The translations under genes were made by a program, and so were the position numbers. Below the pieces are notes generated by a model. That model was not told the DNA's origin and made no database searches. It saw only the letters and a program-made list of their open reading frames with translations. A stretch of DNA of 64,000 nt from NCBI RefSeq assembly GCF_057098645.1, contig NZ_CM169472.1, one strand, 5' to 3'. Below are positions 3,220 to 40,354 of the stretch, in pieces. Numbering within the stretch: the stretch's first letter is position 1; each line of letters begins with the position of its first letter.

Positions 3220-3915
3220 TTAAACCGGCGGCAGATCGAACAGTAACACTTCGCTGTCGCTATCCGCATGGATGGAGATTGCCTGCTCATCCCAGATTGC
3301 CAGACCATCGCTGGTCGAGGCTTTCACGCCGTTAATGGTGACATTGCCTTTCACCACCTGGATCCAGACGCGGCGTTCAGCGGCAATCTGATGCACCGAC
3401 TGCTCATCTTTCAGCAACGCCCAGCGGTACAGTTCCATATCCTGATGCACTTTCAATGAACCATCTCGCGCATCTGGCGAAAGCACCAGTTGTTTGCCCT
3501 GTACAGCATCGAAGCGACGCTGTTCATAACGCGGCGTAATACCATTTTCTTCAGGCATGATCCAGATCTGATACAGATGCAGACGCTCGGTGCTGCTTGG
3601 GTTGTACTCTGAGTGACGAATACCCGTACCCGCACTCATAATCTGGAACTCGCCCGCCGGAACCTGCTCTTTATTGCCCATGCTGTCCTGGTGCTCAACA
3701 GTACCTTCCAGCACGTAGGTCAAAATTTCCATATCTTTATGCGGGTGAGTGCCGAAGCCCTGCCCTGCTTCAATCACGTCGTCGTTAATCACGCGCAGCG
3801 CGGAGAAGCCCATAAAGTTCGGATCGTAATAGTTGGCAAAAGAGAAAGTATGCCAGGAGTCCAGCCAGCCATGATTTGCATGACCACGTTCATTTGCTTT
3901 GCGTAAGTAGATCAT
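3220..3915 (-). CDS. yhhW: Pirin-like cupin protein (quercetin 2,3-dioxygenase family)
   Basis: 231 aa ORF with cupin His motifs (HPHKDMEILTYVLEG); conserved position after gntR. Confidence 0.8.
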   Translation of the reverse strand: MIYLRKANERGHANHGWLDSWHTFSFANYYDPNFMGFSALRVINDDVIEAGQGFGTHPHKDMEILTYVLEGTVEHQDSMGNKEQVPAGEFQIMSAGTGIRHSEYNPSSTERLHLYQIWIMPEENGITPRYEQRRFDAVQGKQLVLSPDARDGSLKVHQDMELYRWALLKDEQSVHQIAAERRVWIQVVKGNVTINGVKASTSDGLAIWDEQAISIHADSDSEVLLFDLPPV

Positions 3916-6132: not shown

Positions 6133-6878
6133 ATGAGTAATATTGTTTATCTGACAGTAACGGGAGAACAACAAGGAAGCATCTCCGCAGGTTGTGGGAC
6201 TACTTAATCTATAGGTAATCGCTGGCAGAGCGGGCATGAGAATGAAATATTTACATTCTCACTCGCAAATAGCATTACTAATACGGGGCTTGGTTCACAG
6301 TTACAGGGTATAACATTTTGTAAATTAATTGATAAAAGCACTCCATTACTTATTAATTCCATTAACAATAATGAGCAATTATTTATGGAATTTGACTTTT
6401 ATAGAATCAATAGATTTGGCAGATGGGAAAAGTATTATTATATACAACTAAGAGGCGCTTTTTTATCGGCTATTCATCATCAGATCATTGAAAATCAACT
6501 GGATACAGAAACAATAACTGTTAGTTATGAATTTATCCTCTGTCAACATCTTATCGCAAATACCGAGTTCAGCTATTTGGTTGGCACTCCCTGAAAATTA
6601 TAACCGTTTGTTTTTACCAAATTCAAAAAACCAAACAAATAATGGTTTCAAAACGTTAAACAGCAAAGCTGTTGGCAGGCTACTTGCTGCTGGTGGCGTA
6701 TACAATGGGAACATTGAAGGTTTCAGAGATACTGCGGAAAAACTGGGTGGAGATGCAATCAAAGGCTATGATCAAATACTAAATGAAAAAACAGCGGGCA
6801 TAGCGATAGCAACAGCATCTATTCTTTTAACAAAGCGTTCTAAAGTTGATACATATACAGAAATAAATAGTTACTTAG
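6133..6878 (+). pseudogene. yhhZ: Hcp-domain-fused toxin gene, 5' part (Hcp-ET type T6SS effector); in-frame TAA at 6205-6207 and a frameshift in the 6527-6594 overlap
   Basis: ATG 6133 encodes MSNIVYLTVTGEQQGSISAGCGTT then stop; same frame reopens 6208..6594 (SIGNRWQSGHENEIFTFSLANSITNTGLGSQLQGITFCKLIDK...), then shifts to the 6527..6925 frame and runs into the IS5 end; AT-rich; positional equivalent of K-12 yhhZ (symbol assigned by position, from memory). Confidence 0.6.
6875..6878. repeat. Target-site duplication TTAG (left copy) of the IS5 insertion
   Basis: TTAG immediately precedes the IS left terminus GGAAGGTGCGAATAAGC at 6879; identical TTAG follows the right terminus at 8075. Confidence 0.7.
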
Positions 6879-26149: not shown

Positions 26150-26190
26150 CCAAAAAACAAAAACCCCGGACTCGCATCCAGGGTTCTCTG
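26150..26190 (-). terminator. Rho-independent terminator of rpoH
   Basis: Minus-strand RNA GAACCCUGG-AUGCGAGU-CCGGGGUU followed by UUUUUGUUUUUU. Confidence 0.65.
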
Positions 26191-26204
26191 CTTTATAGCG
26201 GAAA

Positions 26205-31268: not shown

Positions 31269-31527
31269 TATTGGACGTTTGTTAATGCTCTGCGTTTGGG
31301 GATTTTTAATCCTCAACCTGGTGCATCCCTTCCCGCGCCCGCTGAATATTTTCGTTAACGTGGCGCTGATTTTTACCGTGCTGATGCATGGTATGCAGCT
31401 GGCGCTATTGAAATCCACTTTACCGAAAGATGGCCCGCAGATGACCACCGCCGAAAAGGTGCGGATTTTCCTTTTCGGCGTGTTTGAACTGCTGGTCTGG
31501 CAGAAGAAATTTAAAGTTAAAAAATAA
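31258..31527 (+). CDS. yhhL: Small inner-membrane protein (DUF1145, 89 aa)
   Basis: ATG 31258 overlapping the rsmD stop; MLINIGRLLMLCVWGFLILNLVHPF... Confidence 0.7.
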   Translation: MLINIGRLLMLCVWGFLILNLVHPFPRPLNIFVNVALIFTVLMHGMQLALLKSTLPKDGPQMTTAEKVRIFLFGVFELLVWQKKFKVKK

Positions 31528-31529
31528 CC

Positions 31530-31889
31530 TTATTGTTCGCCAACAAAGCTAACAAAGCGCGTTCCTTTATAGCTCAGCGTACCTTTATCGCCCACTGTCA
31601 GGGCGTGGTACTGCTGGGCGTCGAGGCGAAACGTCTGCTCCATTCCTCCGCTTTGCGGTTTGAAGCTTGCCTCATAGCGCATACTGGTGCCTGCCGGAGT
31701 CACTTCCTGCTGACGCGAACGGCGATCGTTAATCGGTTTTTCCCGCTTGTTGCTCACCACCACCAGCTTTTGCTGGAGCGGTGCCATATCATTATCAGCT
31801 TTTTCCCGTCGCTGTTGCATAAAACGAAACGATGCGGCGACGATGATTAAGCCAATGATAACAATAAAGAAAAGAGGTGGTTTGCTCAT
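31530..31889 (-). CDS. yhhM: DUF2500 membrane-anchored protein
   Basis: 119 aa ORF with N-terminal TM segment MSKPPLFFIVIIGLIIVAASF. Confidence 0.75.
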   Translation of the reverse strand: MSKPPLFFIVIIGLIIVAASFRFMQQRREKADNDMAPLQQKLVVVSNKREKPINDRRSRQQEVTPAGTSMRYEASFKPQSGGMEQTFRLDAQQYHALTVGDKGTLSYKGTRFVSFVGEQ

Positions 31890-34960: not shown

Positions 34961-35278
34961 TTAGTGCTGGGCCGGGAACGGTGGCATGGTCAGGAAAGTG
35001 TAATATAGCGCTAACATCAGAATGACGGAGATAACACAACATGTAGCAACCAGGCGGGACGTGAATGATGGCCTTTTGAACATCAACCACAGGGCATAAG
35101 CAAGCCCGACGCCGTTAAGTAAAGGTAAAAAAATCATTAGCCAGAGCCAACCACAGGCAAGTACCCCCAGCCATCCCCCCACGGCGATTAAAACAGGCAT
35201 CAGCCAATTGGGGGCGAACATCGCGAACAATCCCAGCAATCCCAGCAATCCCAGGCAAACAGGAATTAAATAATCCAT
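34961..35278 (-). CDS. Hypothetical small membrane protein (105 aa) with an internal 3x9-bp tandem repeat
   Basis: Three predicted TM segments; repeat CAATCCCAG x3 (plus strand 35223-35249) encodes LGLLGLLGL; weak SD. Confidence 0.35.
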   Translation of the reverse strand: MDYLIPVCLGLLGLLGLFAMFAPNWLMPVLIAVGGWLGVLACGWLWLMIFLPLLNGVGLAYALWLMFKRPSFTSRLVATCCVISVILMLALYYTFLTMPPFPAQH

Positions 35279-35298
35279 TTGTGTATTCCATTACACTT

Positions 35299-35337
35299 GC
35301 TTGCCGGATGCGGCGTGAACGCCTTATCCGTCCTACG
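35299..35337. repeat. REP element
   Basis: GCCGGATGCGGCGTGAACGCCTTATCCGTCCTAC matches the REP consensus; a second palindrome CCCCTCGCCCCTCAGGGGAGAGGG lies at about 35376-35400. Confidence 0.5.
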
Positions 35338-35422
35338 TACCGGTTTCAAGCAGCAACATTGAGTGCGATCGGTCCCCTCGCCCCTCAGGGGAGAGGGTTA
35401 GGGTAACAGTCCGTGATCCACC

Positions 35423-35668
35423 TTAACCACCTTTACGAATCAAATAGCGATAAGGCAGTCCATCCGTCTCTTTGGCAACCAGTTCGTGTTCCATAAAGGT
35501 ACAAAACCCAGGGATATCGCGGGTCGTCGCCGGATCGTCAGCAATAATCAGCAACGTTTCACCTGGCTGCATATTGCGCACTGTTTTGCGCACCATCATT
35601 ACGGGTTCCGGGCAGCGCAGGCCAAGTGCGTCGAGTGTGTGGTCAGGGCTGGAAAAGAGATCGGTCAT
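35423..35668 (-). CDS. tusA: Sulfur carrier protein TusA
   Basis: 81 aa; conserved [17 protein letters not shown] Cys-Pro-x-Pro motif. Confidence 0.9.
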
Positions 35669-35887
35669 TTTCTTCTCATCACATAAAAAACGGCGCTAGT
35701 TTACGCCCTGTGAGTCCGTAAGCAAACCAGGTTAACGATTGCGTGAAAATTAACCATTGCATTGTCAACGTAAAGCAGTATCATGCGGCGGCTCGAAAAA
35801 AGGGTAAGCACGTTATTATGTTAAGGTAACAGACGTGTCGTACGTATTGGGTTCCCTCACCCCAATGGTTAATCAAAAAGGTACAAT

Positions 35888-36553
35888 ATGAACGTTTTCT
35901 CGCAAACTCAACGCTATAAGGCGTTGTTCTGGTTATCGTTATTTCATCTGCTGGTGATCACCTCCAGTAACTATCTGGTTCAGCTTCCCGTCTCCATTTT
36001 TGGTTTCCATACCACCTGGGGCGCGTTTAGCTTCCCGTTTATTTTCCTTGCTACCGACCTGACCGTGCGTATTTTTGGCGCACCGCTGGCCCGTCGTATC
36101 ATCTTTGCGGTGATGATCCCCGCTTTGCTGATCTCCTACGTCATCTCGTCGCTATTCTATATGGGTTCCTGGCAGGGATTCGGCGCACTCGCCCACTTCA
36201 ACCTGTTTGTCGCCCGTATCGCCACCGCCAGTTTCATGGCCTACGCGCTGGGGCAGATCCTCGACGTGCACGTTTTTAACCGCCTGCGTCAGAGTCGCCG
36301 CTGGTGGCTGGCACCGACAGCGTCCACACTGTTCGGTAACGTCAGCGACACGCTGGCCTTTTTCTTCATTGCCTTCTGGCGTAGCCCGGATGCCTTTATG
36401 GCTGAACACTGGATGGAAATCGCGCTGGTCGATTACTGTTTCAAAGTGTTAATCAGTATCGTTTTCTTCCTGCCAATGTATGGCGTATTACTCAATATGC
36501 TGTTGAAAAGACTGGCAGATAAATCCGAAATCAACGCTTTGCAGGCGAGTTAA
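35888..36553 (+). CDS. yhhQ: Queuosine-precursor transporter family membrane protein
   Basis: 221 aa polytopic membrane ORF. Confidence 0.8.
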   Translation: MNVFSQTQRYKALFWLSLFHLLVITSSNYLVQLPVSIFGFHTTWGAFSFPFIFLATDLTVRIFGAPLARRIIFAVMIPALLISYVISSLFYMGSWQGFGALAHFNLFVARIATASFMAYALGQILDVHVFNRLRQSRRWWLAPTASTLFGNVSDTLAFFFIAFWRSPDAFMAEHWMEIALVDYCFKVLISIVFFLPMYGVLLNMLLKRLADKSEINALQAS

Positions 36554-36625
36554 AGGTTCGTTATCAGAGTTGTGATAAGATGGATGAATGAGCCGTTATG
36601 GCCGTTTATCGAAAGGAAGAAGTCA

Positions 36626-37183
36626 ATGCGCAATCTGGTTAAATATGTCGGAATTGGCCTGCTGGTTATGGGGCTTGCGGCCTGTGATGATAAAGACACT
36701 AACGCTACGGCGCAGGGTTCGGTCGCGGAAAGTAACGCTACCGGGAATCCCGTCAACCTGCTTGATGGCAAGTTAAGTTTCTCGCTGCCAGCGGATATGA
36801 CCGACCAGAGCGGTAAGCTGGGAACGCAGGCCAATAACATGCATGTCTGGTCCGACGCCACCGGGCAGAAAGCAGTCATCGTCATCATGGGCGATGATCC
36901 GAAAGAAGATCTGGCGGTGCTGGCGAAGCGTCTGGAAGATCAGCAACGTAGCCGCGATCCGCAGCTGCAAGTGGTAACCAATAAAGCCATTGAGCTGAAA
37001 GGTCACAAAATGCAGCAGTTAGACAGTATTATCTCCGCGAAAGGCCAGACGGCGTACTCTTCCGTTATTCTGGGTAACGTGGGTAATCAACTGCTGACCA
37101 TGCAAATTACTCTGCCAGCTGACAATCAGCAAAAAGCGCAGACCACCGCAGAAAACATCATTAATACGCTGGTTATTCAGTAA
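36626..37183 (+). CDS. dcrB: Periplasmic lipoprotein DcrB
   Basis: ORF track 36572..37183; start moved to [22 protein letters not shown] (lipobox). Confidence 0.85.
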
Positions 37184-37186
37184 GTT

Positions 37187-38404
37187 TTAAGATGATGAGG
37201 CGGCCTCAGGGACGTGTTCCAGAGGCCGTTTTTTTAATCGCCACGTCAGTAATAACGCGATTGCGACCAGTCCCGCCGCTGCCAGATAAATCACCGGTAC
37301 GCCCGCCCAGCTCATCACCAGCCCAGCCAGTGGTCCAGTCACGCCAAGCGATAAATCCATAAATACGGTGTAAGTTGCCAGCGCCGCCCCCTGATTTTGC
37401 TGCGGAACCGCTTTTACCGCCACTACACCCAATGCCGGGAACACCAGCGAAAACCCGGCCCCCGCCAGTAAGACGCCGATTTTCGCCATCCACGGCATAG
37501 TCGCCACGCCAACCAGTAGCAGGCCGATTATCTCAACGCTAAAGCAAATCATCGCCACGTTTAAGCCGCCGATACGGTTAATGCCGTTAGGGAATAATAA
37601 ACGCGTACCGACAAACGCACAGCTAAACAGCGTCAGCGCGAAAGCCGCACCGTCCCAACCTTTAGCGTCATAAAACAGCGTGATAAAGGTGGCGATGACG
37701 CCAAATCCGGCGGAAGCCAGTGCCAGCGCCATACCGTACAGCCAGACGCGCCCAAGCACTGCGCGAAACGGCAGCGGTTTGCCTTTACTGGCTTTTACCG
37801 TCGGACGCGGGATCGCCAACAAAATGGCCACCAGCGCCACGCCCATAATGATTAACGCTAACGCCTGCAAGCCGCCCCAGTGATAAAACACGACGCCTAA
37901 CGGCGCACCCATCGCCATCGCCCCGTAAGTGACAATGCCGTTCCACGAAATCACCCGCCCGATATGCAGCGAGCCAACCACGCCAACGCCCCACAGGGTC
38001 GATCCCGTTCCGGCAAAACTTTGCCCAATCCCAAGGATCACGCGCCCCAGGCAAAGTAATAACAGGCTGATGACAGGCAGACTGGCGGTTAATCCTGCCG
38101 TCAGATATCCCAGACCGCTCAAAAAGCAGCCGCATAAACCGAAGACGACAATCTTTTTGGGGCCCAGCAAATCGGCGTAACGTCCGGCATGAGGACGGCT
38201 CAGCAAGGTGGCAAAATATTGCAGGCTGATAACCAATCCTGCCCAGAAAGCGCTAAAGCCCATCACATCATGGACATAGCCCGGTAATACAGCGAGCGGC
38301 AACCCGATGGTGAGGTAGCTGGCGAAGTTAAACATGACAATGGAGACAATGCGCAAATTCAGGCGCAATCCGTTTAGCGCGGGTTCGGCTACGGGTTCGG
38401 GCAT
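37187..38404 (-). CDS. yhhS: MFS transporter
   Basis: ORF track 37187..38446; start moved to MPEPVAEPALNGLRLNLRIV; 12-TM MFS-like hydropathy. Confidence 0.8.
   Translation of the reverse strand: MPEPVAEPALNGLRLNLRIVSIVMFNFASYLTIGLPLAVLPGYVHDVMGFSAFWAGLVISLQYFATLLSRPHAGRYADLLGPKKIVVFGLCGCFLSGLGYLTAGLTASLPVISLLLLCLGRVILGIGQSFAGTGSTLWGVGVVGSLHIGRVISWNGIVTYGAMAMGAPLGVVFYHWGGLQALALIIMGVALVAILLAIPRPTVKASKGKPLPFRAVLGRVWLYGMALALASAGFGVIATFITLFYDAKGWDGAAFALTLFSCAFVGTRLLFPNGINRIGGLNVAMICFSVEIIGLLLVGVATMPWMAKIGVLLAGAGFSLVFPALGVVAVKAVPQQNQGAALATYTVFMDLSLGVTGPLAGLVMSWAGVPVIYLAAAGLVAIALLLTWRLKKRPLEHVPEAASSS
37201..37236 (+). terminator. Rho-independent terminator of dcrB, embedded in the 3' coding end of convergent yhhS
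   Basis: CGGCCTC-(loop)-GAGGCCG followed by TTTTTTT on the plus strand. Confidence 0.55.
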
Positions 38405-38535
38405 GAGGATCACCACATTTTTACAACAGTGTTTCATTTTTACCACGTGCTGACGTGAAAATCAGCAGTAAGAATCAGAATATTGCTGGCGTGACTCCCG
38501 CTACACTTAATACAAAAAGTCACAAGGAAGCCCCA

Positions 38536-39585
38536 ATGGAAACCCCTCAACCCGATAAAACGGGCATGCACATTCTGCTCAAGCTGGCCTCGCTGGTAGT
38601 GATCCTCGCGGGCATTCACGCAGCGGCAGATATCATTGTGCAGCTGTTACTGGCGCTGTTTTTTGCCATCGTCCTCAACCCGCTCGTCACCTGGTTTATT
38701 CGTCGGGGAGTACAACGCCCCGTTGCCATTACGATTGTAGTGGTGGTGATGCTGATCGCACTAACCGCGCTGGTCGGCGTACTGGCGGCATCGTTTAACG
38801 AATTTATCTCTATGCTGCCGAAGTTTAATAAGGAGCTGACGCGCAAACTTTTTAAATTGCAGGAGATGTTGCCTTTTCTTAATTTGCATATGTCGCCGGA
38901 GCGAATGCTGCAGCGGATGGACTCGGAAAAAGTGGTTACCTTCACCACAGCGCTAATGACCGGGCTTTCCGGGGCAATGGCGAGCGTGCTTTTGCTGGTG
39001 ATGACCGTAGTTTTTATGCTGTTTGAAGTGCGCCACGTCCCTTACAAAATGCGTTTTGCGCTGAATAACCCACAGATTCACATCGCAGGATTACACCGCG
39101 CACTTAAAGGCGTTTCGCATTATCTGGCGTTAAAGACGCTACTCAGTTTATGGACAGGTGTCATCGTCTGGCTGGGGCTGGAGCTGATGGGGGTGCAGTT
39201 TGCGCTGATGTGGGCAGTACTGGCGTTTTTGCTCAACTACGTGCCCAATATCGGCGCGGTAATTTCCGCCGTACCGCCAATGATTCAGGTGCTGCTGTTT
39301 AATGGTGTTTACGAATGTATTCTGGTCGGCGCATTGTTTTTAGTGGTCCATATGGTCATCGGCAATATTTTAGAACCACGGATGATGGGCCATCGCCTGG
39401 GGATGTCCACCATGGTGGTATTTCTTTCATTGTTAATCTGGGGATGGCTGCTCGGCCCGGTAGGGATGCTACTTTCGGTGCCATTAACCAGCGTGTGTAA
39501 AATCTGGATGGAAACGACGAAAGGTGGCAGCAAACTGGCGATTTTACTGGGGCCGGGCAGACCGAAAAGTCGGTTACCGGGTTAA
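38536..39585 (+). CDS. yhhT: AI-2E (PerM) family transporter
   Basis: ORF track 38455..39585; start moved to METPQPDKTGMHILLK. Confidence 0.8.
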   Translation: METPQPDKTGMHILLKLASLVVILAGIHAAADIIVQLLLALFFAIVLNPLVTWFIRRGVQRPVAITIVVVVMLIALTALVGVLAASFNEFISMLPKFNKELTRKLFKLQEMLPFLNLHMSPERMLQRMDSEKVVTFTTALMTGLSGAMASVLLLVMTVVFMLFEVRHVPYKMRFALNNPQIHIAGLHRALKGVSHYLALKTLLSLWTGVIVWLGLELMGVQFALMWAVLAFLLNYVPNIGAVISAVPPMIQVLLFNGVYECILVGALFLVVHMVIGNILEPRMMGHRLGMSTMVVFLSLLIWGWLLGPVGMLLSVPLTSVCKIWMETTKGGSKLAILLGPGRPKSRLPG

Positions 39586-39604
39586 TAGCACCTCCTGAAC
39601 AGGC

Positions 39605-39645
39605 AATGGCCACCGTTTATCTAACAGTGGCCATTTGATTTGAGG
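39605..39645 (+). terminator. Putative terminator after yhhT
   Basis: Perfect 9 bp inverted repeat AATGGCCAC / GTGGCCATT followed by TTGATTTG. Confidence 0.4.
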
Positions 39646-39964
39646 AAATGATGAAACATTATTCAGAAAATTAATTTAAAAAAACCATTCCTTAAGTCAA
39701 ATATATATAAACGCCGAATAGCGATTAAATCCTTCTCAAAGAATGCACTGATAACATTGTGTTATTTTTATTGCCTCATTTTTCTCACTCACTTATAGTT
39801 GGTCCCTGCTGGCAGTAATTTAGTCATTTCAGAGATTTTTACTCTGATGTGCACTTACTGACTTATCTCACAAGTAATTTTTTCTCTAAATAAAGAATAG
39901 TGATGCCAGCAATTACAGTTAAAACTTGCTTTACTCGTAAAAACAATACTTTAATGGGGTTCTA

Positions 39965-40354
39965 ATGAGACATTACATGAAATGGTTTGCGGCTATTGCT
40001 GTTGTGGGTGCTTTAGCGGGTTGCGCGCGTACTGCGCCAATTGTTCAGGTTCACTCAACCGTCAGCGCTGGTCATACCCAGGAACAAGTGAAAAAAGCGA
40101 TTCTGAAAGCTGGCGTTGAACGCAAATGGATTATGTCCGAAGCCGGACAAGGCATAATTAAAGCACGTCAACAGTCACGCGATCATTCAGCGGAAATACG
40201 CATTAACTACACGGCATCCAGCTACGATATCAATTATGAAAATAGCCAGAACCTACAAGCGTCAGGCGGACAAATTCATAAAAACTACAATCGCTGGGTC
40301 CGCAATCTCGACAAAGATATTCAACTGAATTTGTCAGCGGGCGCAGATTTATAA
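39965..40354 (+). CDS. Small lipoprotein, first gene of the APE-like cluster
   Basis: 129 aa; signal peptide with lipobox (VVGALAGCA); preceded by about 380 bp of AT-rich leader. Confidence 0.55.
   Translation: MRHYMKWFAAIAVVGALAGCARTAPIVQVHSTVSAGHTQEQVKKAILKAGVERKWIMSEAGQGIIKARQQSRDHSAEIRINYTASSYDINYENSQNLQASGGQIHKNYNRWVRNLDKDIQLNLSAGADL

Follow-up and report, generated by a model that had tools for sequence, protein, structure and literature searches.

The likely intrinsic terminator of Escherichia coli dcrB is embedded in the coding end of the convergent gene yhhS

The lipoprotein gene dcrB and the transporter gene yhhS of Escherichia coli are transcribed towards each other and end almost in contact. 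Here, we analyse their junction in a stretch of 64,000 nucleotides of contig NZ_CM169472.1 (NCBI RefSeq assembly GCF_057098645.1), hereafter the window, in which a reading of the sequence alone (the sequence-only reading) had placed the hairpin and T7 run of a dcrB terminator inside the last codons of yhhS on the other strand. The 2.2 kb around the site is 100% identical to E. coli O145:H28 RM12761 and occurs in 5425 of 5426 complete E. coli genomes. Read from the sequence, the dcrB frame ends CAG TAA, with the TAA at 37181-37183, and the yhhS stop occupies 37187-37189 on the minus strand (TTA, the reverse complement of TAA). The RefSeq annotation of K-12 MG1655 agrees on the gene ends (dcrB up to 3610512, yhhS from 3610516), as does that of RM12761. 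Thus, the 3 bp that the sequence-only reading had counted between the two stops are exact by sequence and annotation, and the position of the hairpin and T7 within the final yhhS codons was confirmed to the base. Both products match their expected families in Pfam, DcrB with PF08786 (3.4e-30) and the yhhS product with MFS_1 (1.1e-35, residues 25-351). Overexpression of yhhS has been reported to confer tolerance to glyphosate. The features of the junction are the following.

36626 to 37183, plus strand: dcrB coding sequence (CDS), for the 185-aa periplasmic lipoprotein DcrB (RefSeq annotation of the identical genome, Pfam and sequence)
37184 to 37186, strand not applicable: spacer GTT, 3 bp, between the convergent stops; the gap is 0-6 bp at most enterobacterial orthologous loci
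37187 to 38437, minus strand: yhhS CDS, for a major facilitator superfamily (MFS) transporter; PGAP start at 38437, the annotated K-12 start being equivalent to 38404 (405 aa)
37190 to 37237, minus strand: final 16 sense codons of yhhS (L K K R P L E H V P E A A S S S), antisense of the dcrB 3' untranslated region (3'UTR) and terminator
37201 to 37228, plus strand: dcrB terminator hairpin, with a 7-bp GC-rich outer stem, an A-A mismatch, a 4-bp inner stem and a tetraloop
37229 to 37235, plus strand: U-tract T7, abutting the stem without a gap and invariant in 41 of 41 aligned taxa, those lacking yhhS included

The outer stem pairs CGGCCUC (37201-37207) with GAGGCCG (37222-37228), six of the seven pairs being G-C. 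It is separated by the A-A mismatch at 37208/37221, which interrupts the stem, from an inner stem of GGGA (37209-37212) and UUCC (37217-37220) that carries the loop CGUG (37213-37216). The folding energy is -21.5 kcal/mol against a mean of -10.4 for shuffled sequences (z -4.25), and none of 200 shuffles was as stable. The two strands of the 64-kb window contain 73 T-runs with a length of at least six; by the stability of the upstream hairpin, the run after dcrB comes third, and first among those with a T7 that directly abuts the stem. The observation is exact and above chance. Two minus-strand hairpins with T6, at 2920-2965 and 26152-26197 (-19.7 and -18.8 kcal/mol), are given as outranking the dcrB one; they presumably terminate other genes. 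The distance from the dcrB stop to the start of the hairpin is 17 nt (13 nt with the stem taken in its extended form); the median among orthologs is 17 nt too, and the dcrB 3'UTR, from the stop to the end of the U-tract, is ~52 nt long. A simple terminator scan missed the hairpin, probably since an interrupted stem fails its pattern (loop of at most 8), and an Rfam covariance-model search of 35000-40000 at E<=1 gave no match at the terminator site. A repeated or mobile element similar to repetitive extragenic palindromic (REP) sequences was considered and rejected, as the 70-nt region is single-copy in E. coli, with a median of one place per genome.

Within E. coli, at least two loop alleles of the 70-nt region occur, and the K-12 hairpin differs from that of the window at one base, G for A at 37221. 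In the human ileal isolate E. coli MS 200-1, dcrB is a frameshifted pseudogene, with the hairpin (in the alternative loop allele CAGGTATTTCCACCGG) and yhhS intact. In E. coli E07 (NZ_CM143880.1), an IS1 is inserted exactly between the 3' arm of the hairpin and the T-run, equivalent to 37228/37229 of the window, so that the stem is split from the U-tract, and no yhhS is annotated beside dcrB; dcrB termination and yhhS are probably both disrupted in this strain.

The sequence-only reading had proposed 3'-end mapping of the two genes as its check, and for dcrB such mapping turned out to be published already and to support a terminator at this place. For E. coli K-12, the TRS study (Nat Commun 2023, PMC10687069) lists a 'Primary' dcrB terminus with its dominant position at MG1655 3610564 (+), within a peak spanning 3610559/60 to 3610568/71 (adjusted p 1e-37 to 1e-197), and assigns to it a predicted hairpin of -22.4 kcal/mol and a U-tract of 7. 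The K-12 T7 (6559-6565 of the extracted K-12 locus) corresponds to 3610558-3610564; the TRS end is its last T, which is position 37235 of the window.

Covariation, the T-run and the strand under selection were examined in an ungapped alignment of 41 distinct sequences. Stem cells are paired in 93.3% of cases, a share that falls to 33-53% if the partner column is shifted by 1-3 positions. Compensatory double changes occur in six of the 12 stem pairs, and double-change cells number 45 compared with 13.6 in column shuffles (0 of 500); the RNAalifold consensus supports the hairpin as well. Since the hairpin is palindromic at the DNA level, a strand test was needed. G-U pairs valid only in the dcrB-sense RNA number 38 and those valid only in the yhhS-sense RNA three, and the dcrB-sense fold is the more stable one in 33 of the 41 taxa. 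By this G-U asymmetry, the hairpin is selected on the dcrB strand.

The position of the terminator was followed across enterobacteria in a comparative scan of one genome per species, which covered 80 loci with a dcrB ortholog. The stops are 0-6 bp apart in Escherichia, Citrobacter, Salmonella, Klebsiella, Lelliottia, Leclercia and Trabulsiella, and also in Phytobacter, Franconibacter, Superficieibacter and most Buttiauxella. The loci were sorted as follows.

48 of 80 loci: hairpin and T-run wholly within the yhhS frame (one, L061, with an unreliable yhhS stop call)
2 of 80 loci: yhhS stop within the hairpin loop (Kluyvera)
8 of 80 loci: a different terminator in a true spacer of 60-260 bp (Kosakonia, Atlantibacter and one genome labelled Citrobacter freundii)
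14 of 80 loci: terminator after dcrB, with no adjacent intact yhhS
8 of 80 loci: no terminator found by the simple rule

The hairpin does not depend on the presence of yhhS. Homologous hairpins with T7-8 are found in the yhhS-less genomes of Enterobacter, Pluralibacter, Cedecea davisae, RIT693 and Buttiauxella warmboldiae, where hairpin and T-run now lie ~70-145 nt upstream of yhhT; Yokenella, likewise without yhhS, has kept both, although its locus yielded no yhhT. At least some of these absences are losses, because yhhS remnants are present in B. warmboldiae and in Cedecea colo. The yhhS-less genomes have a similar junction upstream of yhhT, in which the T-run is followed by ... TTTCAGAC. 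The two ends of yhhS in the window share a short similarity, TTTTTTTAATCGCCACGT just after the terminator (37229-37250) and CATTTTTACCACGTG just upstream of the start (38425-38450), and the yhhS-less genomes have a single T-run-GCCACG...TTTCAGAC junction. The similarity might be a microhomology for deletion or insertion of yhhS; it is weak and is not conserved in Salmonella.

The hairpin at 37201-37228 and the T7 at 37229-37235 are, with a probability that we put at about 0.9, the canonical one-directional Rho-independent terminator of dcrB. This reading is carried by direct observations, namely the anatomy, the in vivo 3' end in K-12, the covariation on the dcrB strand and the persistence of the element without yhhS. 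A GC-rich stem-loop, an adjoining U-tract, a mapped 3' end and covariation are together what an intrinsic terminator would be expected to present, and insensitivity to Rho is predicted. RNA polymerase coming from dcrB would transcribe the GC-rich stem and then U7, with intrinsic release at position 37235. Li et al. (2016; PMC4824070) argue that folding of a terminator hairpin needs 10-15 nt of RNA left free by the terminating ribosome, and the distance of 13-17 nt from the dcrB stop to the hairpin is about this requirement. Polymerases that escape the hairpin would enter a C-rich antisense stretch and, judging by published bicyclomycin data, would be stopped there by Rho. In the direction of yhhS, where no U-tract follows and the hairpin lies in translated sequence in which ribosomes suppress hairpins, the transcript would not be terminated at this place. 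The yhhS frame continues past the element to its first stop, 3 bp short of dcrB, and the transcript would then run antisense into dcrB until ended by Rho, which would give the reported overlap of the two transcripts.

Nevertheless, several points weigh against this account. The curated Term-seq list of Adams et al. (2021; PMC7815308) is without a 3' end at 36105xx, and all experimental 3'-end and Rho data are from K-12, in which the hairpin is one base different. The stop-to-hairpin distance of 13-17 nt is near the range where ribosomes partly repress terminators. Moreover, some polymerases may read through the hairpin, or there may be starts of antisense transcription within yhhS. Adams et al. 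(2021; PMC7815308) report a Rho-dependent region at 3610794 (+), antisense to yhhS (score 7.24, p 1.1e-15), which is at ~37465 of the window, ~230 nt past the hairpin; the reads upstream and downstream of it were 171 and 16 in untreated cells and 183 and 124 with bicyclomycin. As the downstream reads rise from 16 to 124 with the inhibitor, plus-strand transcription partly passes the hairpin, or arises beyond it, and is stopped by Rho. The sequence-only reading would have been contradicted by dcrB transcripts running on well past 37236; the plus-strand transcription seen beyond the hairpin is not a wholesale read-through of this kind. The sequence there, given in the next line, looks like what is expected of a Rho loading (rut) site.

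37250 to 37550, plus strand: C-rich, G-poor stretch antisense to yhhS, GC skew -0.20 to -0.31, a putative Rho back-stop

The TERMITe supplements do not mention dcrB. A further Term-seq 3' end, listed for two growth conditions, lies at ~36663 of the window (MG1655 3609992, +), which is 37 nt into the dcrB frame, in the part for the signal peptide; its Rho score is 0.5, with the entry 'No' (Adams et al., 2021; PMC7815308). Candidate origins of this end are premature termination, processing and a 5' fragment.

The Rho data also lend themselves to another explanation of the end at 37235, according to which dcrB transcripts are terminated by Rho and trimmed 3'-to-5' by exonucleases until these come to rest at a protective hairpin. 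The Rho region lies only ~230 nt downstream, bicyclomycin strongly raises the downstream reads, the plus-strand RNA past the hairpin is C-rich, G-poor and rut-like, and Adams et al. (PMC7815308) state generally that 3'-to-5' exonucleases trim Rho-terminated transcripts. A protective hairpin, however, needs no U-tract, yet the T7 abuts the stem and is invariant in all 41 taxa, and a T-run of 7-8 is kept even in genomes where the Lys codons of yhhS impose no constraint. The mapped end is at the last U and not at the base of the stem, and the geometry of stem and U7 is that of a textbook intrinsic terminator. We consider trimming to be an improbable source of this end.

A second alternative is that the element is a bidirectional or collision terminator, which pauses polymerases arriving from both sides and sets where the transcripts of both genes end. 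In its favour, dcrB and yhhS converge with only 3 bp between them and with overlapping transcription, a collision model needs just a hairpin as the pause element, and the minus-strand RNA also forms one (-16.9 kcal/mol, z -3.9), although it is weaker than the fold on the dcrB strand. The criterion for bidirectionality is a 5' A-tract together with a 3' T-tract, but the plus strand 5' of the stem reads GATGATGAGG, with no A-tract, and the yhhS-sense RNA continues with CCUCAUCAUCUUAA after the hairpin and has no U-tract. The published mapping places the dcrB end at 37235, and no minus-strand terminus in 36099xx-36105xx is found among the entries listed in the TRS tables (PMC10687069). On the minus strand, the 3' edge of the hairpin is just 11 nt before the yhhS stop, so that an end at the hairpin would risk a non-stop mRNA. 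The Rho region on the yhhS strand, at 3610066 (-), antisense to dcrB with a score of 3.2 (Adams et al., 2021; PMC7815308), is at ~36737 of the window, ~450 nt further on in the yhhS direction. The G-U asymmetry also shows selection on the dcrB strand. Furthermore, a true bidirectional form, with A-run, hairpin and T-run in a spacer of 70-100 bp, is what the Kosakonia junction has. The terminators of Kosakonia and Atlantibacter are symmetric in this sense; six Kosakonia genomes (L032, L040, L041, L043, L046 and L049, at locus positions ~3580-3606) carry such an element, e.g. AAAAAGGGAACCTGCGGGTTCCCTTTTTT, in appearance a textbook bidirectional terminator in place of the embedded one, and in one of them, K. 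cowanii (L040), a REP-like palindrome lies beside it. For the E. coli junction, a bidirectional terminator is very improbable, more so than trimming.

The one-directional terminator of dcrB leaves the end of the yhhS transcript to be placed further on. A weak minus-strand terminator candidate inside dcrB, at 37150-37137, was rejected, since the fold of 37120-37186 (-) has a z of 0.04 against shuffles, and the yhhS transcript would extend as given in the next line. Its ends are predicted to be diffuse and sensitive to bicyclomycin, at around 3610066-3610400 (-), and to be absent from the hairpin.

36700 to 37186, minus strand: putative untranslated 3' extension of yhhS, antisense through dcrB, with no intrinsic terminator

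The two transcripts overlap because the stops are only 3 bp apart and the dcrB 3'UTR extends for ~52 nt. In agreement with this, ExcludonFinder (NAR 2025, PMC12288877) lists dcrB-yhhS among 165 convergent excludons of MG1655, that is pairs with overlapping transcripts, and places it in the core E. coli excludome, found in at least 50% of 58 transcriptomes. No paper was found in the literature on mutually exclusive expression of dcrB and yhhS or on RNase III interference between them. A regulatory valve may be imagined, in which the proximity of the ribosome at the dcrB stop (13-17 nt upstream of the hairpin) and Rho set the leakage of antisense RNA over yhhS, the yhhS transcript runs antisense through dcrB, and expression of the lipoprotein and of the transporter becomes mutually exclusive. 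We regard this as unlikely; if it were true, a corollary would be that the sequence of the YhhS C-terminus is dictated by an RNA structure of the other strand.

The tail of YhhS can be compared directly with the element that overlaps it. Over the element, the minus strand translates to ...W R L K K R P L E H V P E A A S S S and a stop, in which the T-run encodes KK, the 3' stem arm RP(L) and the 5' stem arm EA, and the loop is a variable spacer. Across the 41 taxa, K-K-(R/W)-P and E-A, encoded by the T-run and the stem arms, are conserved, whereas the four to five residues from the inner stem and loop vary freely (EHVP, VEVP, EESA, AQAA, TQAT, VTEP and others). The change of Arg to Trp (CGG to TGG) accompanies a compensating change from ACGGCC..GGCCGT to ATGGCC..GGCCAT, by which the C-G pair at the stem base becomes U-A and the residue after Glu-Ala is altered as well. 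Carriers of ATGGCC..GGCCAT are Trabulsiella odontotermitis, Leclercia, Silvania and the yhhS-less Enterobacter and Yokenella. As judged from these paired changes, Arg to Trp is a radical substitution that was accepted to keep the base pair. The YhhS of Kosakonia ends at about residue 395, ~ten residues earlier, and that of Kluyvera stops in the loop. Frameshifting on the A7 of yhhS is improbable, as the runs usually linked with transcriptional slippage or ribosome sliding are longer than seven A's.

That the inverted repeat is instead kept for a function of the YhhS C-terminal peptide (KKRP..EA..SSS), with the terminator-like fold as a by-product, is scarcely credible: most YhhS orthologs do conserve K-K-R-P and E-A, an inner-membrane protein is expected to carry a basic juxtamembrane motif behind its last transmembrane helix, and Kosakonia YhhS has a similar RLKQKP motif without a hairpin, but hairpin and T-run persist where yhhS is absent, compensatory changes bring radical substitutions (R to W, A/V to M/I), no constraint is seen on the residues encoded between the two arms of the stem, Kluyvera and Kosakonia have a truncated tail or none, and the Lys codons are AAA, never AAG, in 41 of 41 taxa. 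We infer that it is chiefly the RNA structure formed by the dcrB strand that is under selection and that the YhhS tail is largely a passenger; as the element is kept as the terminator of dcrB, the last dozen residues of YhhS would therefore be mostly carried along.

Compared with known systems, the dcrB element resembles the intrinsic terminators of E. coli, hundreds of which are catalogued as 'Primary' termini by TRS and Term-seq: it has the same stem-loop and U7, a hairpin of about -21 kcal/mol, an end at the end of the U-tract and a position just past the stop codon. Nevertheless, there are differences. The dcrB element lies wholly inside the coding sequence of a convergent neighbour, its antisense being translated, and its hairpin is longer than that of many intrinsic terminators, as it is built from a stem interrupted by the A-A mismatch. 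The SEnd-seq work of Ju et al. (2019), as summarised in bioRxiv 10.1101/2022.10.23.513370, described bidirectional terminators at convergent genes, with ynaJ-uspE as the model. The dcrB element likewise sits at a convergent junction, with a hairpin possible in both transcripts; however, its U-tract is on one side, its mapped end is on one strand and it is inside the frame of one partner. With the convergent excludons of ExcludonFinder, the pair shares overlapping transcripts and a very short gap, and the overlap may be merely the unavoidable result of the 3-bp spacing.

The same window holds a second pair of this kind, 5.6 kb away. The convergent genes yhhL and yhhM have stops 2 bp apart (yhhL TAA at 31525-31527, yhhM stop at 31530-31532) and are also a listed excludon. 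Read along the strand of yhhM, the terminal Lys-Lys codons of yhhL (AAAAAA) are a T6 preceded by a weak hairpin (-9.9 kcal/mol); positions 31452-31480, inside yhhL, hold a stronger one, CCGAAAAGG..CCTTTTCGG. The K-12 3' ends of yhhL (3605347) and yhhM (3605156) are each inside the CDS of the partner (TRS; PMC10687069), and a Rho region antisense to yhhL is at 3605061 (-) (Adams et al., 2021; PMC7815308). Whereas the dcrB end falls in the last codons of its partner, these ends are ~95-100 nt deep in the partner gene, and no strong hairpin with U7 accompanies them. Further along the window, between zntA and tusA, the sole Rfam match in 35000-40000 is a sub-threshold one to naRNA4/CssrE, a REP-derived nucleoid-associated RNA, at 35262-35333 (-) (32.7 bits against a gathering threshold of 59.5, E 0.004). 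The zntA-tusA interval of the O145 genome also has an extra hypothetical open reading frame and ~390 bp that are not in K-12, which shifts the offset between window and K-12 coordinates.

A literature phrase search for terminators overlapping convergent coding ends found nothing. The dcrB terminator inside yhhS is real, ordinary and already documented, a case of gene crowding rather than a new kind of element: the gene ends are annotated, the dcrB 3' end is catalogued and the pair is listed as an excludon. It is useful as a teaching example, and it also calls for caution when the 3' end of yhhS is engineered or the gene deleted: if its last 45 bp went with a clean deletion, dcrB would lose its terminator and be transcribed past its end. 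What the comparison adds is modest, namely a case in which an RNA structure prevails over the protein tail that it overlaps. The stem and T7 have been kept over the long term, even after the loss of yhhS, whereas the tail of YhhS drifts, changes radically or is truncated.

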